A DNA stretch of 64,000 nucleotides from Candidatus Moraniibacteriota bacterium (lineage in GTDB: Bacteria > Patescibacteriota > Minisyncoccia > Moranbacterales > UBA1568): positions 80,627-144,626 of the forward strand of contig JAQTYF010000001.1 in NCBI GenBank assembly GCA_028688415.1. Reading direction: 5' to 3'. The position numbers were made by a program, and so were the translations under genes. This document shows positions 8,499 to 64,000 of the stretch, piece by piece. Positions within the stretch are counted from its first letter, which is position 1, and each line of letters begins with the position of its first letter. The notes under the pieces were generated by a model. It saw only the letters and a program-made list of their open reading frames with translations. It did not search any database and was not told the DNA's origin.

Positions 8499-11084
8499 AT
8501 GACGAAAAAAATCGCACCAAAAAACACGTCGCACACCGCTCAGCCATCCGAGTGGATCATCGTTCGGGGTGCGCGTACGCACAATCTGAAGAACGTGACA
8601 GTACAGATGCCACGGAACAAAATGGTTGTTTTCACTGGTCTCTCTGGATCAGGCAAATCGTCTCTCGCATTTGATACCATATTTGCCGAAGGACAGCGTC
8701 GCTATGTGGAGTCACTCTCTGCGTATGCACGGCAGTTTCTGAACACGATGCAGAAGCCGGACGTGGATGAAATCGTCGGACTCTCACCGGCCATCTCTAT
8801 CGATCAGAAATCCGCGAGTCGAAATCCTCGTTCGACCGTGGCGACGATCACCGAAATCTATGACTACCTGCGTGTACTCTACGCTCGTCTCGGTCGTCCG
8901 CACTGTCTCGTGTGTGATCGGGAAATCCAGAAACTTTCTACTGAAGAAATGCTCCTCATCGTCTCCGACAAAGTGAAGCAGGCCCTTACTGTCGCCAAGA
9001 AGAAAAAAATGTTACTGAGTATCACCGCTCCGGTCGTCCGTGGACGCAAGGGAGAATACTATCAGTTGCTCTACAATGCACTGAACAAAGGATTTGCAGA
9101 AATATTTCTCGATGGGGAACGCAAGAGTCTACGTGAGCGTGTCCTCCTCTCCAAAACCAAGAAACATAACATCGATCTGATCGTCGATGAGTTGCCATTG
9201 TTCGAATTTGAAAAATTTCCCGAGACATCGAGAGAACGATTGTCCGAAGCAGTGGAGCGAGCTCTCGAAGAAAGTGACGGACTCGTCAATGTGCGTATCG
9301 GTGATGAGAGTCTCGTTCTGTCCGCCAAGTTTTCTTGTCCGTACGATGGTTTCTCCTACCCGGAAGTCGAGCCGAGGCTGTTCTCGTTCAACTCTCCCTA
9401 TGGTGCATGTGAGGCCTGCAATGGACTCGGGACGAAACATTTTTTCGGTGATGAACCGTGCGAAGTCTGTCATGGATCACGTCTTCGCGAAGAGGCTCTT
9501 CATATCCGTATCGGTGGAAAAAATATCGTGGATGTGACGACGATGATGACCGAGGATGCCAAGAAATTTTTTGACACACTCGAGCTGACTGAACGTGAGA
9601 AACAGATCGCTGCTGTCGTACTCAAGGAAGTCGGTGGACGTCTCCAATTCCTCCTCAATGTCGGACTGAATTATCTCTCACTTTCTCGTCGTGCCAATAC
9701 GCTTTCAGGAGGAGAGGCTCAGCGTATCCGTCTCGCTTCTCAGCTCGGTTCACAACTCGTGGGCGCTCTCTATGTCCTCGATGAACCGACCGTCGGACTG
9801 CATCAGCGTGACAATGATCGTCTCATCGCGACACTCAAAGACCTTCGTGATCTGGGCAATACTATTATCGTCGTCGAACACGATGAAGACACGATCTATG
9901 CTTCTGATTATCTCGTCGATATCGGACCGGGTGCAGGGGTGCATGGTGGTAATGTTGTCGTGTCCGGGTATCTCGATGATTTGCTTCAGTCACCGAAGAA
10001 TGATTCACAGTCACTCACACTCGCGTACTTGCGAGGCGAAGAAAAAATCCGGGTCCCAGAGAAGAGACGCACCAAAGAAAAAGGAACACTGAAAGTGCGT
10101 GGTGGGAAACTGTTCAATATTCATGATATGAATGTCGATGTCCCACTCGGACGGCTCAACGTCATCACCGGTGTCTCCGGCTCGGGCAAGTCGACATTGC
10201 TCTATGAAATCATTCACAAAAACCTCCAGGCTCGTTTCGACAGACGCTACAAATCCAACGAAGTATTTCACTGCAACACATTTACCGGTTCTGAATATTT
10301 GTCGCGCGCCGTACTTATCGATCAGAGTCCGATCGGTCGTACACCAAGATCGAACCCAGCGACGTACACAGGAGCATGGACACATATCCGTGATTTGTTC
10401 GCATCGAGTGAGGACGCTCGGGTACGTGGTTGGAAGGCTGGACGTTTCTCATTCAACCGTCCTGGTGGACGCTGTGAGACCTGTGAAGGAAACGGATTCA
10501 TCGCTGTCGAAATGCATTTTCTCCCGACAGTCTATGTGCCGTGCGATGTCTGCAATGGCAAACGATTCACCAAAGAAACGCTCGAGATTCTCTACAAACA
10601 CAAGAACGTTTTTCAGGTGCTCGATATGACGATCGAAGAAGCGTTCTCGTTCTTCGTGGACATCCCAGCCATCGCTGATCGTCTGAAAACACTGAACGAA
10701 GTCGGTCTCGGATATCTCAAGCTCGGTCAATCGGCGACGACACTGTCGGGTGGTGAAGCGCAACGTGTGAAAATTTCCTCGGAACTCTACCGCAAGATGT
10801 ATGAACGCACGATCTATCTCCTCGATGAACCGACGATCGGACTGCATTATGAAGACGTAAGAAAACTGATCGAGATTCTCGAGAGCCTCGTTCAAAAGGG
10901 GAATACAGTGATCCTCATCGAACACAATATGGATATTATCAAATCAGCGGACTATATCATTGATATCGGTCCCGAAGGTGGAGCAGGTGGTGGCAAGATC
11001 GTCGCTTTTGGTACGCCGGAGGAAGTAGCTCAGATGCCACGCTCGTATACTGGTCAGTATCTGAAAAAAGTCTTGAAAAAATAA
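8499..11084 (+). CDS. uvrA: UvrA paralog (short form, lacks the insertion domain between the first Cys cluster and the second zinc finger)
   Basis: '[12 protein letters not shown]', Walker A '[14 protein letters not shown]', two 'LSGGEAQR' ABC signatures, zinc-finger cysteines. Between 'CEACNGLG' and 'CEVCHGSRL' there are only about 10 aa, versus about 120 aa in the second copy. Start moved to Met at 8499 (MTKKIAPKN), which follows the extended -10. Confidence 0.85.
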
Positions 11085-11629: not shown

Positions 11630-12946
11630 ATGACACCGATCTCAGACTCTCACAGCCTGTCTCAAGAATGGAAAAAGCTTTTGAGCATAGACTCTTTTCA
11701 TAAAGAAAATAAGCTCCCAGAAGTGCCGGGGGTGTATTTCTTCTTGGACGAGAACCGAGAAATCCTCTATATAGGCAAGGCGACATCGCTCCGTGATCGG
11801 GTGAAGAGCTATTTCTCCCGAGATATACAGGAAACTCGCGGACCGAAAATCAGTTTGATGCTCGACCGTGCACGATACATCGCGTATCGAGAAACCGATT
11901 CGGTACTCGAGGCGCTCATCCTCGAGAGCAACCTCATCAAAGCAAAACAACCTCCGCACAACACCGATGCCAAAGATGACAAAAGCTATTATCTGGTCGC
12001 GATAACAAAAGAGCTCTATCCTCGTGTCCTCATGGTGAGAGGGAGGGACATCGAACAGAAAAAATTTATCGATCCTGTGAAATATCTTTTCGGACCATTC
12101 CCATCTGGAGGAGGATTGCGCGAAGCACTCAAAATCGTGCGAAAACTCTTTCCATTCCGAGACAAATGCAAGCCGTTCGAAAGAACAGCGAAGCATCCTG
12201 AGTTTGTCGAAGAGTTGCATATGAAAAATATTCCGCACCCTTGTTTTTCTGCACAAATAGGACTGTGTCCAGGAGTGTGTTCAGGAAGAATTTCTCGACA
12301 AGAGTATGGAAAAACAATCAATCATATCCGACTTTTCTTTGAAGGACATAAAAACGATATCATCAAACAATTGAAGAGAGAAATGAAAGTGTCTGCAAAA
12401 GAACTCCGATTCGAACGAGCAAACGAAATCAAAAAAACATTGTTCGGATTGCAACATATCCAAGACATCGCTCTTATCAAAGATGATCTGAAAGAACGAC
12501 ATGCGCATCGTATCGAAGCATATGATGTCGCGCATCTCGGAGGAACGGCGAGTGTCGGTGTGATGACCGTTGTAGAACAGAGTCGGAGCAATCCAAGTGA
12601 GTACCGGCAGTTCAAGTTGCGAGGGAAGCACAATGGCAATGATCTGACTGCGCTCGAAGAAATCCTGACACGACGTCTGAAGCACACAGAATGGGCACTA
12701 CCAGAAATCATCGTGGTGGATGGATCGTTGCCCCAAGTGGCAGTAGCGGAAAAAGTACTCACATGTGTGGGTCTTACCATCCCTGTCCTCGGTGTGGTAA
12801 AAGATGAGAAACATCGTCCAGACCATTTTGTCGGAGAAGAGGCGCTTACAAACCGTTTCAAAAAAGAGATGCTTCTCGCGAATAGTGAAGCGCATCGATT
12901 TGCTATTACCTTCCATAGAAAACGTCGTGCAAAAGAATTCCTCTAA
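11630..12946 (+). CDS. uvrC: Excinuclease ABC subunit C (UvrC), compact form without C-terminal (HhH)2 domain
   Basis: GIY-YIG 'PGVYFFLDENREILYIGKATSLRDRVKSYF', Cys motif 'CPGVCSG', UVR domain 'KELRFERANEIKKTLFGL', RNase-H-like endonuclease domain 'IEAYDVAHLGG...YRQFKL...IIVVDGSLPQ'. Ends at 438 aa before any HhH region. Confidence 0.85.
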   Translation: MTPISDSHSLSQEWKKLLSIDSFHKENKLPEVPGVYFFLDENREILYIGKATSLRDRVKSYFSRDIQETRGPKISLMLDRARYIAYRETDSVLEALILESNLIKAKQPPHNTDAKDDKSYYLVAITKELYPRVLMVRGRDIEQKKFIDPVKYLFGPFPSGGGLREALKIVRKLFPFRDKCKPFERTAKHPEFVEELHMKNIPHPCFSAQIGLCPGVCSGRISRQEYGKTINHIRLFFEGHKNDIIKQLKREMKVSAKELRFERANEIKKTLFGLQHIQDIALIKDDLKERHAHRIEAYDVAHLGGTASVGVMTVVEQSRSNPSEYRQFKLRGKHNGNDLTALEEILTRRLKHTEWALPEIIVVDGSLPQVAVAEKVLTCVGLTIPVLGVVKDEKHRPDHFVGEEALTNRFKKEMLLANSEAHRFAITFHRKRRAKEFL

Positions 12947-53941: not shown

Positions 53942-55042
53942 ATGAAAATAGCTCTGGTACATGATTATTTGGTGCAATACGGGGGAGCAGAGCGAGTACT
54001 CGAGGCTTTCACTGAGCTGTTTCCGTATGCCCCGATCTATACACTCATCTATGACAAAGAAGCGATGCATGGGGTTTTCGAAAACAAACGTATCTACACG
54101 TCATTTCTCCAGCACTTTCCCTTTTCACGCAAACGACATCGTTTTTTTCCACCGCTTATGCCACTGGCTATTGAGCAGTTTGACTTGAGTAAGTATGATG
54201 TCGTATTGTCGGATTCATCGAGCTATGCCAAGGGTATCATCACTCGTCCTGAGACCCTCCATATCTGCTATATGCACACCCCGATGCGCTACGCGTGGGA
54301 TGATTGTCAGAAGTATACTCAAGATTTCGGATTTCCAGCGCTGGTGAAAAAAATTGTTCCATTTTTTATGAACCCGATTCGTCTCTGGGACAAATCTTCA
54401 GCTGACCGTGTGGATCATTTTCTGACGAATTCACAATTTGTTACTAAACGTATCAAGAAATATTATAACAAAGAAGCTCTCGTTGTTCATCCGCCAGTCA
54501 ATGTCAACCATTTCTTTCTTTCAGAAGAAAGACAGGATTATTTTCTTATTGTCGGTCGTCTCATTGCTTACAAGCGTCACGACATCGCTATCGAGGCCTT
54601 CAATCGGTTGAAACTCCCACTCAAAATTATCGGACGAGGACCAGAACTCGAACGTCTGAAGAAAATAGCTGGTCCGACGATCGAATTCCTTGGTCGTGTT
54701 CCCGAAGAAGAATTGCCAACATACTATGCCAAGTGTCGGGGATTTATTTTTCCTCAGGAAGAAGATTTTGGTATTGTGGCGATAGAAGCGATGGCGTCCG
54801 GTCGTCCGATCATTGCCTATCGTGCTGGAGATATCGTAGAACATCTGGAAGAGGGAAAGATGGGAGTTTTCTTTGATACACAGACGCCAGAAGCAATCAT
54901 TGATGCCGTACATCGTTTCCGTGACGACGACTACGACCCGGCGTATATCAGGAGTAGAGCCCTCCCTTTTGACAAAGAGCGATTTAAGACTACAATAAAG
55001 GACTATATAGAAAAAGCTTTGAAGAATCACCTTCAAAGCTAA
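53942..55042 (+). CDS. Family 4 glycosyltransferase
   Basis: GT-B fold, 'FPQEEDFGIVAIEAMASGRPIIAY'. Confidence 0.8.
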   Translation: MKIALVHDYLVQYGGAERVLEAFTELFPYAPIYTLIYDKEAMHGVFENKRIYTSFLQHFPFSRKRHRFFPPLMPLAIEQFDLSKYDVVLSDSSSYAKGIITRPETLHICYMHTPMRYAWDDCQKYTQDFGFPALVKKIVPFFMNPIRLWDKSSADRVDHFLTNSQFVTKRIKKYYNKEALVVHPPVNVNHFFLSEERQDYFLIVGRLIAYKRHDIAIEAFNRLKLPLKIIGRGPELERLKKIAGPTIEFLGRVPEEELPTYYAKCRGFIFPQEEDFGIVAIEAMASGRPIIAYRAGDIVEHLEEGKMGVFFDTQTPEAIIDAVHRFRDDDYDPAYIRSRALPFDKERFKTTIKDYIEKALKNHLQS

Positions 55043-55127
55043 AAATGATACAATGAACTAATTTCGAAATTGTGACATTAGAAATTGTTTGAAAATTAGA
55101 AATTGAAAATTGGTTAATTAAATTCGT

Positions 55128-55739
55128 ATGGAACTGAGAGAATATCTCGACATTTTCAAGAGACAAATCAAATGGTTTTGGATAACTATTCTTTTGTTTC
55201 TTTTCATAGCGGGAGCATGGCAACAAAATCAGCCAGAGACATTGGAAGCCACACTGCTCCTCAATATTGGTCGTGCCAGTGTTCAAGATACTCGAGACTA
55301 CACATTCGATAGTTTTTATCGATTGCAGGCAGACGAACGTTTTGCCGATACAGTAGTGAGGTGGCTCGGTTCTTCTCGTGTCGCAGAAGATATCTATAGA
55401 GCAGTTGACAGAGAGACGAGAGATATGAGCACTCAGACACTCGAGAACGTTTTTGAAGCGAAGCGCTTGTCTTCTCAGATGATCGAAGTGACGTATGCAC
55501 ATCCAGACTATGAGACACTCCAAAAAATGTCTGAAGCGACAGTCACGCATCTGAACAACTACGCAGAACAATTGAACAAAGAAAGTCGTGAACAAACCCA
55601 TTGGTTTACGATTGTGGGCAGCGACCCTATCATTCGTGATGTACGGATTACTCTTTCTTTTGCTCTTTCGGTCGGACTGGCTTTTGGAATATTTATCGGA
55701 TTTTGGGTGGCGCTTATAAAACACTATTTCTCAAAGTGA
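55128..55739 (+). CDS. Wzz-like polysaccharide chain-length determinant family protein (short form)
   Basis: 'LREYLDIFKRQIKWFWITILLFLFIAGAW' Wzz N-terminal pattern. TM at both termini. Confidence 0.5.
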   Translation: MELREYLDIFKRQIKWFWITILLFLFIAGAWQQNQPETLEATLLLNIGRASVQDTRDYTFDSFYRLQADERFADTVVRWLGSSRVAEDIYRAVDRETRDMSTQTLENVFEAKRLSSQMIEVTYAHPDYETLQKMSEATVTHLNNYAEQLNKESREQTHWFTIVGSDPIIRDVRITLSFALSVGLAFGIFIGFWVALIKHYFSK

Positions 55740-56899
55740 TGCGGATAGGAATCGATATACGGTGTCTGGCAGAAGGAAAACGTACGGGAGTGGAAGAATA
55801 TACTATTGCTCTTCTTTCTGGACTTTTCGAACAATTTCCAGAGAATGACTACATTCTTTTTTTCAATGCATGGAAGAAGCAACTTCCTGATTTCTCGTGG
55901 GCGACTCGGTATCCCAATGTGACACTGCGAGTGTTCCATTTTCCAAATAAATTGCTCAATTTCTCACTCTGGTACTTCCGTTTTCCGAAACTCGATACAC
56001 TTATTGGCGGTACGGATGTATTTTTTCTTCCGAATTTGAACTTCTCCGCTGTTTCTCGTAAGACGAAACTGGTGGTGACAGCACACGACCTGTCATTCGA
56101 ACTCTTCCCAGACACTTTCTCTCTGAAACGTCGTATCTGGCATTTTTTCATCAATTTCAGAAGTCTAGTTCGGAACGCTGACGCTGTGATTGCCGTATCA
56201 GAATCGACCAAGAATGACCTCATAGATTACTACGGTGTTTCAGAAAAGAAAATAACCGTGATCCACAGTGGCATAGGAGAACAATTCTCCGTGATGAGTC
56301 GTAATGATACGAACCTTGTTCGAGTACAGGAGAAATATCATCTGCCATACAAATTCATCCTTTCTCTTTCGACATTCGAACCACGCAAGAACCTACTTGC
56401 TCTCATATCAGCCTTTGATGCATTGATGGCACTCGACCATCCTGTACTCAAGAAATATATGCTCGTGATTGCTGGTACACGTGGGTGGAAATATCGAGAG
56501 ACGTTTCAAGCGATCAAAAACTCTCCATACAGAAAAAACATTCTCCTGACGGGATTTATCGCCGATGAGGACAAATCCGCGCTTTATAATCTTTCGAGTC
56601 TTTTTGTTTACCCATCATTTTATGAAGGATTCGGATTTCCACCTCTCGAAGCGATGGCGTGCGGTGTGTCTGTCATCGCTTCCCATTCGTCTTCTCTCCC
56701 AGAAATAGTCGGTTCGGCAGGGATACTCGTCGATCCGTATCGACCAGACGAGCTCTTCCAGGCGATGAAACAGGTCTTGCTCGATCCAGAACTCCTAGAC
56801 ACACTCCGTAAACAAAGCGAACTGCGAGCACGTGATTTCCAGTGGAGCACTTCCATCGCATCGACGGCTCATATCTTCTCTTCGATTGTTGAAAACTGA
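55739..56899 (+). CDS. Family 4 glycosyltransferase
   Basis: 'YEGFGFPPLEAMACGVSVIAS'. Start at the Met at 55739 (MRIGIDIR) overlaps the previous stop by 1 nt. Confidence 0.8.
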   Translation: MRIGIDIRCLAEGKRTGVEEYTIALLSGLFEQFPENDYILFFNAWKKQLPDFSWATRYPNVTLRVFHFPNKLLNFSLWYFRFPKLDTLIGGTDVFFLPNLNFSAVSRKTKLVVTAHDLSFELFPDTFSLKRRIWHFFINFRSLVRNADAVIAVSESTKNDLIDYYGVSEKKITVIHSGIGEQFSVMSRNDTNLVRVQEKYHLPYKFILSLSTFEPRKNLLALISAFDALMALDHPVLKKYMLVIAGTRGWKYRETFQAIKNSPYRKNILLTGFIADEDKSALYNLSSLFVYPSFYEGFGFPPLEAMACGVSVIASHSSSLPEIVGSAGILVDPYRPDELFQAMKQVLLDPELLDTLRKQSELRARDFQWSTSIASTAHIFSSIVEN

Positions 56900-57102: not shown

Positions 57103-58506
57103 ATGAAGGAGAAAAACACAAAGAAGATAGGCACAGGAGCAGCATTACTCATAGCAGTAATGTCTTTTAGTTCGTTTTTTGCCGTGGCATCGTTGGTAGG
57201 GAAGAACCAATCTCCTCTGACTCCAGTCAGTCTTGCGAGTGATAATGAGGGGGAAGATGGTAATGATTCAGATGAGAACAAAGACGAGGAAGATGATGAC
57301 AAGGATGAGGTGAAGTCTGCTTCTGAAAAAGCTAAGAAAGAGAAAGAAAAATCTCGAGAAGATTTGAAGAAGCGTTCTGAACGTGCAAAAGAGTCCAATA
57401 AGCAAACCACAGAACAAGATTCTGATGATGAAGAAGATAATAATGATGAAAACGAAGGAGATGAAAACGACGAGAACGACGACAATGATGGAGATGTAGA
57501 TGACGATATGGATGAAGAAGATGATGATTCTTATGGTCAGGCACGAGGAGGGGATTTCGAGGGCATGTACAAAGACAGCGCGAAAACCCTTTCAAAATTG
57601 CAGGAAAATATAGCAGAAGCTGAGAAACATATTCTCGAAAAACAAGCAGAAGGAGTCGATGTGACTACTGCTCTTGCTGAGCTGAGTCTTGCCAAGGCCA
57701 AATTGGCTGGAGTAAGTACAGCATTTACTGCAAGCAATTTCGAGATGGCCAAGAAATTGTCCAAAGAAATCAAAAAAGAATCACTTTTCAGCGAGAAAGA
57801 TCTCGAGTTCAAGAAAGATATGACTGAGTCGATAGCAGAAGTGATGAAGAAATTTACGAAAGTAGAGAAGAAAATTGCCTCGCTCGTCGCTCTTGGTGGC
57901 GATTCGACGACGTTCAACACACAATTGGCGTCACTCCGAGCTGATTTTGATGTCTTACAAACTTCATCACTCGTGACACGAACTGATGCGAGAGCTTTCG
58001 AGAAAAAAGCTGAACGATTGAAGAATCTCGTCGAGCAATCAATTTTTGCTCTCGGTGGCACAGAAGAAGATGATGATCTCTATGCCGATCATGAAGAAGA
58101 TGCGGATGATCTCGATGAAGATTTGAATGATGTGGCTGAGATCGAAGACGGTGATGACAATGGTGTTGCGAAGAAGGTTCGTGCTATTGCAGCAGAACAC
58201 CGCTCATCAGTAGCTGATATCGCCAAAAGTTTGAGTGATATTCAGAATCAGAGCGGATTTACAAAAACAGTTTTTGGTCCTGATGCTACCGCCTTGAATG
58301 GTCTCACAGCACAGACGACTGCTATGACGGCTCGTGCTGATGCATTGACGACTGCCTCTACACAGGTGACCGATCCTGATGTGAAACAGATTCTCACAGA
58401 TCGTGCATCAGCACTGCGTAGTGAGGCTTCCAAGCTTCAGGCGTATCTCACTGCTACGACAAACCAGTTCAGTATCTTCGGAAAATTCCTCTCTCTCTTT
58501 CGCTAG
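57103..58506 (+). CDS. Membrane-anchored, highly acidic (D/E-rich) coiled-coil protein
   Basis: N-terminal TM (AALLIAVMSFSSFFAVASLV). About 100-aa Asp/Glu/Asn low-complexity region, then long helical heptad-like segments and a second acidic block (EEDDDLYADHEEDADDLDEDLND). Confidence 0.5.
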   Translation: MKEKNTKKIGTGAALLIAVMSFSSFFAVASLVGKNQSPLTPVSLASDNEGEDGNDSDENKDEEDDDKDEVKSASEKAKKEKEKSREDLKKRSERAKESNKQTTEQDSDDEEDNNDENEGDENDENDDNDGDVDDDMDEEDDDSYGQARGGDFEGMYKDSAKTLSKLQENIAEAEKHILEKQAEGVDVTTALAELSLAKAKLAGVSTAFTASNFEMAKKLSKEIKKESLFSEKDLEFKKDMTESIAEVMKKFTKVEKKIASLVALGGDSTTFNTQLASLRADFDVLQTSSLVTRTDARAFEKKAERLKNLVEQSIFALGGTEEDDDLYADHEEDADDLDEDLNDVAEIEDGDDNGVAKKVRAIAAEHRSSVADIAKSLSDIQNQSGFTKTVFGPDATALNGLTAQTTAMTARADALTTASTQVTDPDVKQILTDRASALRSEASKLQAYLTATTNQFSIFGKFLSLFR

Positions 58507-58622: not shown

Positions 58623-59234
58623 ATGGATAAGAAATCAAAAATATTTTTTGCCGTATTTTTTCTACTCATTGTTCTCTCTGTTGGAGCGACCTACTATCGG
58701 TATGTCGTGGCGCATGACTATATGATTCAGGCAGAGTTAGACTGTGATCCCTATACTGAATCTTGTTTCGTCTATGTTTGTGATCCGGAAGCTGATGAAG
58801 AATGTACCGGAGATCCGATAGAAGATACTTCGTATTACAAACTTATCGATCGCAATGCCAAGAATATTCCTCTTTGTGATCCTGCCGATGAAAATTGTAC
58901 TGCTCTCGTGTGTGAAGAAGGGGAGGTAGACTGCTCATACACACTCTGTGATCCAGAGACAGCCGAAGAGGGTGAAGTGTGTAATGATCCAGTTGTGTAT
59001 ACAGCCGAGAATCCGATAGAAGAAGAAACAGATGAAGCAGTGGATGAAGAAGGAGCTACTACTCTGACTGAGGACGAAGAAAGTATCCCTGCTACCGAAG
59101 GCGAAGAAACAGCAAATGAAACAGTCGAAGGAGAAGAAACAACAGAAACTCCTGCAAATGCTAATGAAACAGAACCTGTATCTACCGAAGCATCCATCAC
59201 TCCTGCAGTTTCTGGGACGGTTATCGTGCCCTAG
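58623..59234 (+). CDS. Membrane-anchored Cys-rich protein with four C-D-P-x(n)-C repeats and acidic Glu/Thr-rich tail
   Basis: N-terminal TM (IFFAVFFLLIVLSVGATYY). 'CDPYTESC', 'CDPEADEEC', 'CDPADENC', 'CDPETAEEGEVC' repeats (12 Cys). C-terminal E/T-rich low complexity. Confidence 0.5.
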   Translation: MDKKSKIFFAVFFLLIVLSVGATYYRYVVAHDYMIQAELDCDPYTESCFVYVCDPEADEECTGDPIEDTSYYKLIDRNAKNIPLCDPADENCTALVCEEGEVDCSYTLCDPETAEEGEVCNDPVVYTAENPIEEETDEAVDEEGATTLTEDEESIPATEGEETANETVEGEETTETPANANETEPVSTEASITPAVSGTVIVP

Positions 59235-59494: not shown

Positions 59495-61213
59495 ATGAAG
59501 CTTTATTGTATTTCAGGGAATAAAAAGAAACTTGATCATTATCAAGAATTGCAAAAGATATTTTCTTCACGTCTTTTTGACATTGTTCCCAAAGAGATAA
59601 CTACTTCCGAAATACAGTCAGTAAAAGGAGAAGAGGTTGTCCGGGAGAAAATGAATCAAATACGTAAACAAACATCGATGCCTTTTATTGTTGATGATGT
59701 TTCTTTGCTTGTTGGATCGAATGCTTACCCAGGAGCACTAATAAAGCATCTACTAGAAAATAATAATACCGAAACGATACCACAATTCTTGCCAGACAAA
59801 ACACCTGTTGTAGTGGTTTGTTATCTCGGATATTTTGATGGTTTTGACTCTTTCATATTTAAGGGTGAGTTACGAGGAGAAACTCACTTTGATTCTTTGG
59901 ATGTCCGTGCCCCGATTCAGTTGGATACTCTCATCTTTGCTCATGGTGTCCCTCTTGGTGTTGTTGATTCTACCGAAAATCATCGAGGGAAAGCCTTTCA
60001 GGAATTAGTGAAACACATTGAATCAGTCAGAGAAGAGCGTGAACGACATAATGTACAGGTAGCTGAACGTTGGAGCAAACGAGCAAACGAGTGGCAATCA
60101 GTACGTGAGGATGTTGCGTCCTATGTGAATCATGAGAATGGCTATGATCGTTTCGATACTGAAGTAAACCGTATTTTGCCTTTTATATTTGGTACGGCTA
60201 TTGATGTTGGTTGCGGTGATGGAGCTGTCACGAGGCTTATTTCCTCGAATGCGAACATAAAGAACATCATTGGAATGGACATCAGTTCAGAAATGATCCA
60301 AACAGCTACAAAGAACACAACAGACAGTCGAATTCGGTATGAAGTTAGTTCATTTTTGAATACTAATAAAAGAAAGTATCATCTTATCACCTCGAGAGGT
60401 GTCGTGTTGTCGCATATGCATAAGACAGATGTTCTTCCGACGCTTATAGCGTTTGCAGAGTCTCTTGAGACAGATGGTTTCCTCGTCTTTGATTATATTA
60501 GTAATATAGATAACAATGATGATGCAGGGAGAATGCAGAAAAATCAGTTGAGTAAAGAGTGGATCCTTGCCGTTTTGACAGAGCTTGGGCTCGTAAATAT
60601 TTCGTATAACGGATCCGAGACTCATAGAGTGAGTATACTCGTATTTCATAAACCAATTCCACAATCAGTATATTTTGCCACTGGCAATGCTACCAAGGTT
60701 CTCGAACTGAAAAATAAATGTAAGAATCATATCATTCATTTGGCAAATGTTGATGTTACAGAAATCAAGAGTGATGACATTGTGGAGATTGCAAAAGATA
60801 AGGCAATGAAGAGTTACACTGTATTACATCACCCTGTCATTGTGACCGATGGAGGTATATTTATTCATGCGTTGAATGAATTCCCTGGTCCAAATTCTAA
60901 ACAGGCAGCGATGCTTCTCGGGCCAAAAAAGATACTCGCCTTGATGGAGAATGAAATTGATAGAACTGCTATCAGGCGAAATTGTATGGTTTTTTTTGAC
61001 GGACATAACTATAAAATTTGTATTGCAGAAGTACCTCTTCTTATAAGTCATGATATTACGACGAGTAAATATGATGCCTATCCATTGGATTCTATACTGA
61101 TACCAATACATACTGACAATCTTAAAAAACAAACCTATAAGCAAATGACTGTTACGGAACGCTTGATGTTTACCGAATTACCATTTTTTGAAGAATTCCT
61201 TGCTACACTTTGA
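59495..61213 (+). CDS. Tri-domain fusion: HAM1/ITPase-like NTP pyrophosphatase + class I SAM-dependent methyltransferase + second HAM1/ITPase-like domain
   Basis: N-terminus: 'YCISGNKKKL...E', 'VDDVSLLVGSNAYPGALIKH', 'NHRGKAF' match the Ham1/RdgB motifs (ATGNxGKxxE; DDSGLxVxALxGxPGxYS; SHRGxA). Middle: 'AIDVGCGDGAVTRL...IIGMDIS' is MTase motif I/II. C-terminus: 'YFATGNATKVLE', 'VTDGGIFIHALNEFPGPNSKQAA' are a second Ham1-like set. Confidence 0.6.
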   Translation: MKLYCISGNKKKLDHYQELQKIFSSRLFDIVPKEITTSEIQSVKGEEVVREKMNQIRKQTSMPFIVDDVSLLVGSNAYPGALIKHLLENNNTETIPQFLPDKTPVVVVCYLGYFDGFDSFIFKGELRGETHFDSLDVRAPIQLDTLIFAHGVPLGVVDSTENHRGKAFQELVKHIESVREERERHNVQVAERWSKRANEWQSVREDVASYVNHENGYDRFDTEVNRILPFIFGTAIDVGCGDGAVTRLISSNANIKNIIGMDISSEMIQTATKNTTDSRIRYEVSSFLNTNKRKYHLITSRGVVLSHMHKTDVLPTLIAFAESLETDGFLVFDYISNIDNNDDAGRMQKNQLSKEWILAVLTELGLVNISYNGSETHRVSILVFHKPIPQSVYFATGNATKVLELKNKCKNHIIHLANVDVTEIKSDDIVEIAKDKAMKSYTVLHHPVIVTDGGIFIHALNEFPGPNSKQAAMLLGPKKILALMENEIDRTAIRRNCMVFFDGHNYKICIAEVPLLISHDITTSKYDAYPLDSILIPIHTDNLKKQTYKQMTVTERLMFTELPFFEEFLATL

Positions 61214-61975: not shown

Positions 61976-62761
61976 ATGTTAAATCTTTTGAAAAAAATAC
62001 TCATTGTAGGAAGTACTCACGGTCACGAAAGGATCGGTTTAAAGGTGATCGATGAATTGAAAAAACTGAATGTAGGGAGCGATGTGCTTCAGTTTGAAGT
62101 TGGCAATCCAAGGGCTTCAGAAAAAAACATTCCTTTTACTGAGAATGATTTGAATCGTGTTTTTCCAGGGAAAGAACATGGTACCTATGAAGAAATGCGA
62201 GCGTATGAATTGTCTCCGAAAATCAAAGAATCGGACTTGGTGATAGATATCCATTCGACAAATACTACAGATCTGAGTGATAGATCCGTGCTTATAGTGA
62301 CTAGCTATAACCAGGCGACGAAAGATATTATAGACGTAATCAAGCCACCCAAGGTTCTCTATATGAAGTATAAAGGAGACAACGCATTAATCTCTCAAGC
62401 AAAAGTTGGTATAGCTTTCGAATATGGTAAAGATTCGAGTACTGAAGTACTCAATGCTATTTTGTATGATATCGCAGAAGTATTGATGTATTACGGTCTT
62501 GTGGAAAAAAATCCCTATAAAACGATCAAACCTATAACTGAAACTGAAATATTTGAAGTGTATGATGTATTCAAGAAAGATTTCGTCGGTCCTCACAAAT
62601 TTTATCCAAATATAAAAAATTTCGTAAATGTAGCGAAAGGTGAGACAATCTGTAGTACAGAGAGTGATGAGCAGATACTCGCAGAAGAAGATTTTATACC
62701 AATATTATTTGGCGAGAACAGATATACGGATATACTCGGGTTCAAGGCGAAGAAGATTTAA
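61976..62761 (+). CDS. AstE/AspA-family (succinylglutamate desuccinylase/aspartoacylase-like) zinc hydrolase
   Basis: 'ILIVGSTHGHERIG' (HxxE zinc motif) and 'NRVFPG' are hallmarks of the AstE_AspA / M14-like family. TATAAT at 61956-61961 upstream. Confidence 0.65.
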   Translation: MLNLLKKILIVGSTHGHERIGLKVIDELKKLNVGSDVLQFEVGNPRASEKNIPFTENDLNRVFPGKEHGTYEEMRAYELSPKIKESDLVIDIHSTNTTDLSDRSVLIVTSYNQATKDIIDVIKPPKVLYMKYKGDNALISQAKVGIAFEYGKDSSTEVLNAILYDIAEVLMYYGLVEKNPYKTIKPITETEIFEVYDVFKKDFVGPHKFYPNIKNFVNVAKGETICSTESDEQILAEEDFIPILFGENRYTDILGFKAKKI

Positions 62762-62942
62762 TAATACACACTATTTTTTGCAAAAAATGGGGATTTGGGG
62801 TAGAACATGAGTGCAAGAAGTGCCTTTTTTTTGAAGAAGAGAGTTTTTAGATTTTTGACAGTTTTATACTTCTGATGTATTGTTTTATTTTAGTCGAATG
62901 AATCAATAATTCATTTTTTAAACTTTATTTTTTAAAAAATAC

Positions 62943-64000
62943 ATGAACACAATAGATACATCTGATAATATTAAGGGAAACAGTGAAGTTAATGTGAGTA
63001 AATTTGGAGTAGCTCCACAATTGGATGGTTACTATTTTTCACCAGAAAGAGCAAGAGAAGCGAGAGATCAGGGGCGACTATTGTCTATAAGGATTGAGCC
63101 AAGTTTTCGGTGTAATTTACGTTGTGAGTATTGTTATAATAAAAATTATCAATCTTTACCTGATGAAATTAGTTATTCTGAATTGGAAGACATTATTTAT
63201 CAAGCAAAAGAACTCGGCGCTGAATCTATTGTGAATATCGGAGGAGGGGAACCGACCATTTACCCTCGATTTAAGGATTTGACGATATTTATTAATTCGC
63301 TAGGTATGGTCCCTGTTATTTTCACGAACGCTCAAACAATGACAAAGGATCTCGCAAAGTTTTTATTTGATAATAACGTTTCGGTAATTATTAAATTTGA
63401 TTCATTAACGGAAAGTATACAAGATTCTTTATCAGGAGTGAAGGGTGCTCACAGAAATATTATGCAAGGGCTGGATAATTTATTGAAGGCCGGTTATGCT
63501 CACACAAAAAGTGACCAAAAGCTTAAATTAGGAGCCTCGTTCGTTATAAGCAAGAAGAATGCACATGAAGTTGTTGGCTTGTGGAAATTTTGTAGAGAGC
63601 GGAAAATATTTCCAAACTTGGAGATGATGACTCCTAATGAAACAGGAACGAATGCTGAGAAAAATCTTTTAAGCAGACAAGAATGGAAAGAAATTAAAAT
63701 GCAACTTCTGGAAATTGACCGGAACGACTACGGTTTTGATTGGTTACCATTTACTCCCTTAGTTGGAAGTGGTTGTTTCCAGTTAATGTATAGTTTTTAT
63801 ATTACTGCAAGAGGATTTGTTCGCCCATGCGCTGCGATTGAAGTAGAATACGCAAATATAAAAGATTATTCTTTAAAAAATATAATGAAACTTCCTTTTT
63901 ATCAGATGGCAAGAAATATTGACAAACATTTACAGGGGAAGTGTGGTGGATGTAAACATATATTAAATTGTCTGGGGTGTAGAGGAATGGCGTTCTCAAT
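62943..64000 (+). CDS. Radical SAM enzyme with C-terminal SPASM/twitch-like Cys-rich domain (partial; runs off window end)
   Basis: My own translation from ATG 62943 has no stop to position 64000. 'PSFRCNLRCEYCYN' (CxxxCxxC), 'NIGGGEPT'. C-terminal cysteines in 'GSGCF', 'RPCAA', 'GKCGGCKHILNCLGCRG'. Confidence 0.7.
   Translation, partial: MNTIDTSDNIKGNSEVNVSKFGVAPQLDGYYFSPERAREARDQGRLLSIRIEPSFRCNLRCEYCYNKNYQSLPDEISYSELEDIIYQAKELGAESIVNIGGGEPTIYPRFKDLTIFINSLGMVPVIFTNAQTMTKDLAKFLFDNNVSVIIKFDSLTESIQDSLSGVKGAHRNIMQGLDNLLKAGYAHTKSDQKLKLGASFVISKKNAHEVVGLWKFCRERKIFPNLEMMTPNETGTNAEKNLLSRQEWKEIKMQLLEIDRNDYGFDWLPFTPLVGSGCFQLMYSFYITARGFVRPCAAIEVEYANIKDYSLKNIMKLPFYQMARNIDKHLQGKCGGCKHILNCLGCRGMAFS

Follow-up and report, generated by a model that had tools for sequence, protein, structure and literature searches.

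The DNA analysed here (the window) is a stretch of 64,000 nucleotides from a Candidatus Moraniibacteriota bacterium (contig JAQTYF010000001.1, positions 80,627 to 144,626 of the forward strand), and it ends inside a gene for a radical S-adenosylmethionine (SAM) enzyme with a SPASM domain (62943..64000, + strand). An enzyme of the SPASM radical SAM type is commonly taken for a peptide maturase, hence the hunts for missing precursors. This gene borders a conserved cluster of small-molecule enzymes, and other lineages carry a TauD-family oxygenase gene, related to L-arginine hydroxylases, at the same position. We put at roughly 55% the probability that the radical SAM/SPASM enzyme takes the place of a TauD/VioC-type oxygenase under anaerobic conditions, with a free basic amino acid as its substrate. 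A peptide is most likely not what it modifies, and the framing of the locus as one with a missing precursor is most likely wrong; the likeliest substrates would be basic or guanidino amino acids resembling arginine, ornithine or lysine, or compounds closely derived from them. From the domains, cysteines, gene neighbourhoods, positional replacement and genomic island described below, we infer the substrate class, the reaction type and the link to the chemistry of the cluster.

A radical SAM enzyme with a complete SPASM domain

The open reading frame (ORF) opens with ATG and gives codons 1-352 of 374 before running off the window, with the stop predicted 67 nt further on. When 5.8 billion proteins were searched, a 374-aa protein (P0001), 100% identical over its full length, was found in the Candidatus Moranbacteria metagenome-assembled genome (MAG) GCA_028699965.1. 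Since the contig of P0001 (JAQVTP010000002.1, locus L001, whose position 10001 is window position 62943) matches the window, the region past the window end can be read there.

The Pfam family Radical_SAM (PF04055) matches residues 51-186 with E=6e-18 (66 bits against a cut-off of 29.5) and SPASM (PF13186) matches with E=1.2e-6 (29.1 bits against 21.5), so that these domain matches are not due to chance. Inside the first match lies CNLRCEYC (63111..63134, residues 57-64), an instance of the CxxxCxxC motif that binds the SAM-cleaving [4Fe-4S] cluster; across 23 aligned homologues drawn from many phyla, its cysteines C57, C61 and C64 do not vary. The sequence IGGGEPT (63237..63257) is the 'GGE' motif, whose role in SAM binding is established for the radical SAM superfamily, and I99, G100, G101, G102, E103, P104 and T105 are all invariant. 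The SPASM auxiliary Fe-S domain (63774..64000) has the form C278-x12-G-x4-C296 ... C334-x2-C337-x5-C343-x2-C346, with C372 lying off the window; all seven of these cysteines are invariant among the 23 homologues. The array thus reads Cx12Gx4C ... Cx2Cx5Cx2C ... C, a complete seven-cysteine set that follows the SPASM rule Cx9-15Gx4C-gap-Cx2Cx5Cx3C-gap-C except that the last spacing is x2 instead of x3. The seven-cysteine SPASM motif binds two auxiliary [4Fe-4S] clusters, as P0001 is predicted to do. A further residue upstream of the motif, C217 (63591..63593), is at least 90% conserved in one alignment (A1) and invariant in another (A2), and by analogy with the anaerobic sulfatase-maturating enzyme anSME it may provide the auxiliary clusters with an eighth ligand. 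The complete protein contains 12 cysteines.

The AlphaFold2 model of P0001 (mean pLDDT 87.8) superposes in Foldseek on SuiB, SkfB, anSME, BlsE, PqqE, MoaA, ChlB and CteB with TM scores of 0.55-0.68, and the alignments with SuiB and anSME cover 350-380 columns and include the C-terminal domain. The gene is confirmed as that of a real radical SAM/SPASM enzyme with an auxiliary-cluster domain. A sequence-only reading of the window had called it such from CNLRCEYC and a C-terminal cysteine array (GSGCF, RPCAA and CGGCKHILNCLGCRG), every part of which is present in the ORF translation, and the SPASM domain that it postulated is recognisable by profile, by the cysteines invariant in 23 homologues and by the predicted fold on SuiB, anSME, SkfB and PqqE. 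That reading was nevertheless only partly supported: its radical SAM/SPASM assignment is right, and its inference of a peptide modifier is without support.

An oxygenase in the slot of the radical SAM gene

Downstream of the radical SAM gene, on the opposite strand, lie genes for a 299-aa HisC/CobD-like pyridoxal phosphate (PLP) enzyme, a 344-aa protein with a glutamate-cysteine ligase (GCL) fold and a 269-aa APH-family kinase. Divergent to this kinase group are genes for an inorganic pyrophosphatase, for a member of the class-III aminotransferase family and for a protein of 441 aa, followed by one for a HAD-IB phosphatase. Profiles assign the 344-aa protein to no family, and a profile search against the sequences in the PDB returned nothing; its model (pLDDT 83.7) has the fold of glutamate-cysteine ligase, YbdK and glutamine synthetase, which would make it an ATP-dependent carboxylate-amine ligase. 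It has only 7 homologues in 5.8 billion proteins, and all of their loci keep the APH kinase, the ligase and the HisC/CobD-like PLP enzyme; the pyrophosphatase, the class-III aminotransferase, a protein of ~431-441 aa and the HAD-IB phosphatase are present wherever the cluster contig extends. The 441-aa protein (L001 15884-17209, off the window), found in every cluster copy at 48-67% identity, matches nothing in Pfam or NCBIfam, and the class-III aminotransferase-family protein is 78-89% identical between copies, far above the rest of the cluster.

In the window genome (L001) and in a relative with an 82%-identical radical SAM protein (L008/L091), the slot at the end of the PLP gene is filled by the radical SAM/SPASM gene. 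In four other lineages (L171; L172; L173/L174; L175) the same slot is filled by a TauD-family gene of 288-289 aa, placed tail-to-tail after the PLP gene. Across the fetched loci the two are never found together, giving two radical SAM and four TauD lineages among the six that have the cluster. Because the genes beyond the slot differ in every locus, both the radical SAM and the TauD gene are border members of the conserved block.

The TauD protein keeps an HxD/E...H-type motif (WHTEDAH ... SAHKRS). Among solved structures it is closest to L-arginine hydroxylases and a desaturase (VioC, OrfP, 6daz/6dax; E ~1e-17), after which come AsnO, CmnC, lysine 3-hydroxylase and clavaminate synthase; of the NCBIfam models, those for GntD, VioC and clavaminate synthase (CS1) score best, all under cut-off. 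The simplest reading of the exchange is non-orthologous displacement, in which an O2-dependent Fe(II)/2-oxoglutarate amino-acid oxygenase and an O2-independent radical SAM/SPASM enzyme would serve a single step in the same small-molecule pathway. The TauD protein's affinity, which is of the arginine type, agrees with the arginine-deiminase-like, ornithine-carbamoyltransferase and decarboxylase partners that the radical SAM family has elsewhere. In one of the TauD lineages (L171, a 755-kb contig of 28% GC), two in-frame TGA codons of the TauD gene (11938-12807) align with Trp of the L172 orthologue. UGA is apparently translated as Trp in this organism (code 4), in which case the cluster would reach beyond the standard-code bacteria of the candidate phyla radiation (CPR).

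The radical SAM gene also shares its base composition with the cluster. Its GC content is 35.3%, against 42% for the window, and it lies in a low-GC island of 9 kb (from window ~61940 to L001 ~18000) with 31-39% GC against 40-45% in the flanks. This island, which suggests a horizontally acquired module, runs from an AstE/AspA-like gene (61976) through the radical SAM gene and the cluster to the HAD gene. The gene at its 5' edge, where the drop in GC starts (61976..62761, + strand), encodes a deacylase of the AstE/AspA family (succinylglutamate desuccinylase / aspartoacylase-like; Pfam PF24827, E=2e-13), for which the NCBIfam aspartoacylase model scores 60.7 bits, under its cut-off. It is absent from the 82% relative and is a possible member of the module.

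Another way to view the locus is that the radical SAM gene stands alone, with a function unrelated to its neighbours, and that both its adjacency to the cluster and the exchange with TauD are coincidences of island insertion. The gene is indeed convergent to the cluster, and 60 nt before its ATG is a promoter-like TTGACA-17-TATTGT (62855..62883, + strand; 10/12 consensus matches), a consensus match that suggests a transcription unit of its own, although such sites are no more frequent in the region than in shuffled sequence. Gracilibacteria relatives, moreover, adjoin recA and small unrelated genes. However, the adjacency to the cluster is kept in two genomes, that of the window and L008/L091, despite different outer flanks and an identity of no more than 53-63% between their cluster proteins; the radical SAM gene and the cluster have the low-GC island in common; and association with a kinase and a ligase recurs in DPANN archaea. 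With adjacency retained across divergent genomes, a common island and this DPANN recurrence, we regard coincidence as very unlikely.

Family neighbourhoods and the search for a precursor

P0001 has more than 200 homologues at E<=0.001. The family spans CPR bacteria, DPANN, Thermoplasmatota, Methanosarcina, Planctomycetota, Chloroflexota and others at 45-65% identity, with 45-50% even to members from Planctomycetota, Dehalococcoidia, Actinomycetota, Methanolobus/Methanosarcina and Nanoarchaeota. The nearest relatives outside the CPR are those of Thermoplasmatota (61-65%), and in alignments A1 and A2 the window protein falls among members from Thermoplasmatota and CPR, to which it is 51-82% identical. 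Defined by full-length homology at >=43% identity, a length of ~355-400 aa and an invariant residue set (G29, Y30, R41, IGGGEPT, K151-x-DS, W214, C217, R218, P224-N225-x-E227, D259, W267, RPC296 and GCRG348), the family includes the window protein on all counts. None of its members is annotated more specifically than 'radical SAM protein', and a full-text search of the literature found no paper on this family or on the operon described next.

We fetched 170 family loci, called and clustered their ORFs and annotated the recurrent clusters with Pfam and NCBIfam. Of the dereplicated members (<90% identity), 63 have 2.5 kb or more of sequence downstream, and in 33 of these the radical SAM gene, a Methyltransf_33 gene (EasF/EgtD-like) and a gene for a 315-aa arginine-deiminase-like protein form a tight operon on one strand. 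Such partner counts are lower bounds, as high-GC loci (e.g. L004 and L017) were mis-called by the simple ORF caller, and one extra locus has the three genes if the gene calls of the database are used. Carriers of the operon belong to Methanosarcinaceae, Planctomycetota, Dehalococcoidia, Acidobacteriota, Aminicenantes, Actinomycetota, Fibrobacterota and Brocadiaceae (for example L003 10001-13088, L004 10001-13092 and L010 8001-11033, with ~30 more loci). Arginine deiminases are the only solved structures in the PDB that its deiminase-like protein matches (E=2e-21).

Other branches of the family have other partners. An archaeal clade of Thermoplasmatota and unclassified Euryarchaeota MAGs carries a bona fide ornithine carbamoyltransferase (324 bits against 281), together with CntL/nicotianamine-synthase-like proteins, UbiA prenyltransferases, PaaK-like ligases and B12-dependent radical SAM enzymes. 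DPANN loci combine the radical SAM gene with an ATP-grasp ligase and an APH kinase, and so repeat the ligase-and-kinase pattern of the window cluster with a non-homologous ligase; the APH kinases of the two are 24% identical, and therefore related at the family level only, not as orthologues. Omnitrophota-type loci have a PaaK-like ligase and lipid-type glycosyltransferases. Decarboxylases of the diaminopimelate (DAP)/ornithine type are found in an unclassified pair of metagenomic contigs (L006/L007), which also has a phosphoenolpyruvate (PEP)-utilising phosphotransferase, and in Clostridia loci, which also have a DapD-like acyltransferase and, like the archaeal relative L083, an M20 deacylase. 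On L006 (7529-13877), two radical SAM/SPASM genes with 25% mutual identity stand on either side of the decarboxylase gene, followed by a PEP-utilising kinase (PigC/rifampicin-phosphotransferase-like) and a CYTH-domain protein. Judged by gene content, the common thread of the neighbourhoods is basic or guanidino amino acid metabolism with phosphorylation and ligation, not peptides.

Some of the same neighbours would suit a different small molecule. The enzyme could be a radical dehydrogenase of sugars, cyclitols or lipid head groups, of the BtrN, DesII, BlsE or calditol-synthase type, which oxidises or rearranges a hydroxylated carbon ring that is then aminated, phosphorylated, amidinated or glycosylated, as in streptidine-like or glycolipid logic. 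The APH kinases, aminotransferases, HAD phosphatases and amidinotransferase-fold (arginine-deiminase-like) protein are in keeping with this, as are the GT28/MGDG-synthase-like glycosyltransferases, the UbiA prenyltransferases and the presence of BlsE among the structural matches. The enzyme found in exchange, however, belongs to a clade of amino-acid/guanidino hydroxylases and not to the sugar oxidoreductases, the deiminase-like partner matches arginine deiminases only, and genes for inositol or nucleoside-diphosphate sugars are not conserved with the family. UbiA occurs in other archaeal clades of the family, but among operon-bearing loci it is limited to Methanosarcinaceae, and there it is on the opposite strand (in Methanosarcina, two UbiA genes on the other strand follow the operon). 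We thus hold a head-group or sugar substrate to be unlikely.

The search for a precursor peptide gave nothing on either side of the gene. In the upstream spacer of 181 nt, said to hold only ORFs of 7-8 codons, there is also one of 22 codons (62807-62875), but it contains neither Cys nor Gly and is not conserved in the 82% relative, whose own spacer has no similarity to that of the window genome. The hairpin noted there folds no better than shuffled sequence (z = -0.87), and an Rfam search of the leader and cluster for riboswitches or other RNAs gave only two chance-level matches to eukaryotic snRNA/snoRNA. That the window holds no precursor is borne out; that one might lie downstream, off the window, is not, as a convergent aminotransferase-like gene lies 70 nt past the stop (33 nt in the 82% relative). 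With the contig extended and all ORFs of >=20 aa listed, the downstream spacer has short ones that overlap the adjacent genes, and none is Cys/Gly-rich. Clustering of 1212 small ORFs (15-99 aa) around ~85 family loci gave no cluster that reached past one genus and none that was Cys/Gly-rich. Small ORFs beside a 59% relative in Gracilibacteria (for a 76-aa Zn-ribbon protein, a 64-aa membrane protein and a 149-aa lipoprotein) were considered as candidates and rejected, as they are not conserved elsewhere.

The enzyme itself also lacks the marks of a maturase of peptides that are ribosomally synthesised and then modified post-translationally (RiPPs). No PqqD or RiPP recognition element (RRE) domain matches P0001 at E<=0.01, and the ~45 residues before the CxxxCxxC motif are modelled as a short hairpin and one helix. 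A subfamily assignment by NCBIfam/TIGRFAM, which had been proposed as a check, could not be made, since no equivalog model reaches its cut-off. The peptide maturase models match weakly, at 45-65 bits against cut-offs of 265-725 (DynA 58 against 450, WgkB 55 against 650, StsB 54 against 625, KxxxW 53 against 500, SkfB 47 against 300, MftC 54 against 265 and PqqE 56 against 381), and the anSME model is not among the best 25 families. There are no sulfatase or quinohemoprotein genes within +/-10 kb.

The enzyme might still install a thioether, a C-C cross-link or a formylglycine in a peptide or protein encoded elsewhere. Its SPASM architecture is common to peptide maturases, and the nearest PDB sequences and folds are those of SkfB, SuiB, anSME, CteB, ChlB and PqqE; it is because the nearest solved structures are peptide and protein maturases that we leave this account some probability. 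Against it, in addition to the low model scores and the missing RRE domain, are the lack, around ~160 family loci, of any small ORF (15-99 aa) conserved past a single genus, the 33-70 bp of downstream spacer, too small for a precursor, and the fact that the conserved partners are metabolic enzymes, so that we judge it quite unlikely.

As a possible substrate within the window, attention had been drawn to a cysteine-rich protein with CDP repeats. Its ORF (58623-59234) exists as described and encodes an N-terminally anchored protein with no Pfam domain. A tblastn search of all fetched loci, however, found it in the window genome only, with none in 174 others, the 82% relative included, and its 348 homologues (48-79% identity), of which the named ones are all from Moranbacteria/Patescibacteria, have a far wider phyletic spread. 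We thus reject it as substrate; it is likely a lineage-wide envelope protein with a phyletic pattern unrelated to that of the radical SAM enzyme.

Upstream of the radical SAM gene, window 59495-61213 encodes a 572-aa fusion of unusual architecture, with a class-I SAM methyltransferase between two Ham1/ITPase-like (non-canonical NTP pyrophosphatase) regions, and 57103-58506 encodes a 467-aa protein with a signal/anchor-like N-terminus, long Asp/Glu-rich stretches and no Pfam match. Further upstream (53942-56899), two GT4 glycosyltransferase genes flank a gene for a small Wzz-like (chain-length determinant) protein. This trio is also found upstream of the radical SAM gene in the 82% relative (L008), and its synteny is therefore ancestral to both genomes.

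The highest NCBIfam scores of P0001 are to models for tetrapyrrole and cofactor biosynthesis, which raises the idea of an AhbC/AhbD/NirJ-like or MoaA-like enzyme. NirJ2, AhbD, a tungsten-cofactor maturase, AhbC and MoaA head the list at 68-82 bits, but these values are 4-8 fold under cut-offs of 284-650 bits (NirJ2/AhbD, the best, at 81 against 500; the AhbC/AhbD/NirJ models together at 66-82 against 500-650; MoaA at 68 against 284), and the matches lie mainly over the generic radical SAM core, residues ~50-255. With no heme, siroheme or molybdopterin genes in any type of neighbourhood, such a role is highly improbable.

Proposed chemistry and comparison with known systems

If the radical SAM/SPASM enzyme does oxidise a free basic amino acid, the following scheme, which rests on analogy with anSME and BtrN, can be proposed. 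The cluster at CxxxCxxC would cleave SAM to a 5'-deoxyadenosyl radical, which would take a hydrogen from the side chain of the substrate. The second electron would go to the two SPASM clusters, making this a three-cluster enzyme, and the net O2-independent two-electron oxidation would yield a desaturated (dehydro) product or, after addition of water, a hydroxy or oxo product. In the window cluster, this product may pass onward through the APH kinase, the GCL-fold ligase, the HisC/CobD-like PLP enzyme, the class-III aminotransferase and the HAD-IB phosphatase. Replacement of O2-dependent enzymes by O2-independent radical SAM enzymes is known from HemN/HemF, BchE/AcsF and anSME/FGE (the formylglycine-generating enzyme).

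Several points weigh against this proposal. No member of the family has been characterised. The closest solved structures, by sequence and by fold, are mostly modifiers of peptides or proteins (SuiB, SkfB, anSME, CteB and PqqE), with the small-molecule enzymes BlsE and MoaA interleaved among them. Positional replacement rests on two radical SAM and four TauD lineages, a small sample; the radical SAM gene, which lies convergent to the cluster, is probably served by a separate promoter; and some relatives (Gracilibacteria L009) have no informative neighbours. The kinase, aminotransferase, amidinotransferase-fold, glycosyltransferase and UbiA neighbours would also fit a cyclitol, sugar or lipid head group. 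Finally, we know of no direct hydroxylation of an amino acid by a radical SAM enzyme, and the product of the radical SAM enzyme therefore cannot be equated with that of the oxygenase.

A more specific version of the proposal is tentative, and we think it doubtful as a whole: that in this family the Fe(II)/2-oxoglutarate hydroxylases and desaturases of amino acids would have their first radical SAM counterpart, an anaerobic enzyme for unactivated C-H bonds in the side chain of free arginine or of a related guanidino or basic amino acid, with the operon leading to a novel arginine-derived betaine or ureido metabolite and the CPR/DPANN versions feeding a kinase-and-ligase pathway. Small-molecule SPASM enzymes and anaerobic radical SAM replacements of oxygenases are already known; what is new is the proposed substrate class and this family. 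The significance of the locus is that it belongs to a large cross-phylum SPASM family whose context points to free amino-acid chemistry. If the exchange of TauD and radical SAM genes reflects a shared function, hundreds of unannotated genes of anaerobes, including tractable methanogens, would gain a concrete substrate hypothesis, amino-acid C-H oxidation would join the reactions that have separate aerobic and anaerobic solutions, and novel arginine-derived metabolites would be expected in methanogens, planctomycetes and the ultra-small cells of CPR and DPANN.

Among known systems, the best PDB matches are SuiB, SkfB and CteB (SkfB with E=1.4e-11 by sequence, SuiB with a Foldseek E=1e-15, TM up to 0.68), which have the SPASM/twitch architecture in common with P0001. 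SuiB and CteB, however, have an N-terminal RRE, SkfB has a [2Fe-2S] domain, and all three adjoin their own precursor gene, whereas P0001 has none of these. A further comparison is with anSME (AtsB/anSMEcpe; PDB 4k36-4k39), an enzyme of similar size that likewise lacks an RRE and joins a radical SAM core to a full SPASM domain, in which two auxiliary clusters are bound. Having abstracted H, it completes a two-electron oxidation, and it does without O2 what FGE does with it; we propose the same logic for P0001. The likeness is nonetheless generic (Foldseek TM ~0.6, identity 17-18%), and the substrate of anSME is a Cys or Ser residue in a sulfatase, while the P0001 locus has no nearby sulfatase and the anSME model is not reached.

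BlsE, BtrN, AhbD and NirJ show that radical SAM enzymes of the SPASM/twitch type can oxidise or decarboxylate free metabolites. BlsE is among its top structural matches, and AhbD and NirJ2 are its top NCBIfam matches, far under the family cut-offs; they act, however, on a nucleoside sugar, an aminocyclitol or tetrapyrroles, and in gene context they differ from P0001. Relatives of the oxygenases of the VioC/OrfP/GntD/NapI type hold the slot of the radical SAM gene in the sister kinase-ligase-PLP clusters, with the same proposed substrate class and role, yet they have an unrelated fold and unrelated cofactors and depend on O2, and are thus analogues and not homologues of P0001.

A last comparison concerns the logic of the pathway as a whole. 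In sinefungin biosynthesis, SinC, a B12-dependent radical SAM enzyme, acts on free L-arginine and forms a C-C bond to an adenosyl group (bioRxiv 10.64898/2026.05.21.726688), and the genes SinC/F/R/D combine this enzyme with a kinase, a guanidine-removing hydrolase (arginase) and a phosphatase (bioRxiv 10.64898/2026.05.21.726688). As a B12-binding radical SAM enzyme, SinC is of another class than the SPASM enzyme P0001, and the two are likened by the logic of their clusters, not by homology. Since the sinefungin pathway acts on free L-arginine by way of a radical SAM enzyme, a pathway logic of this kind has precedent.

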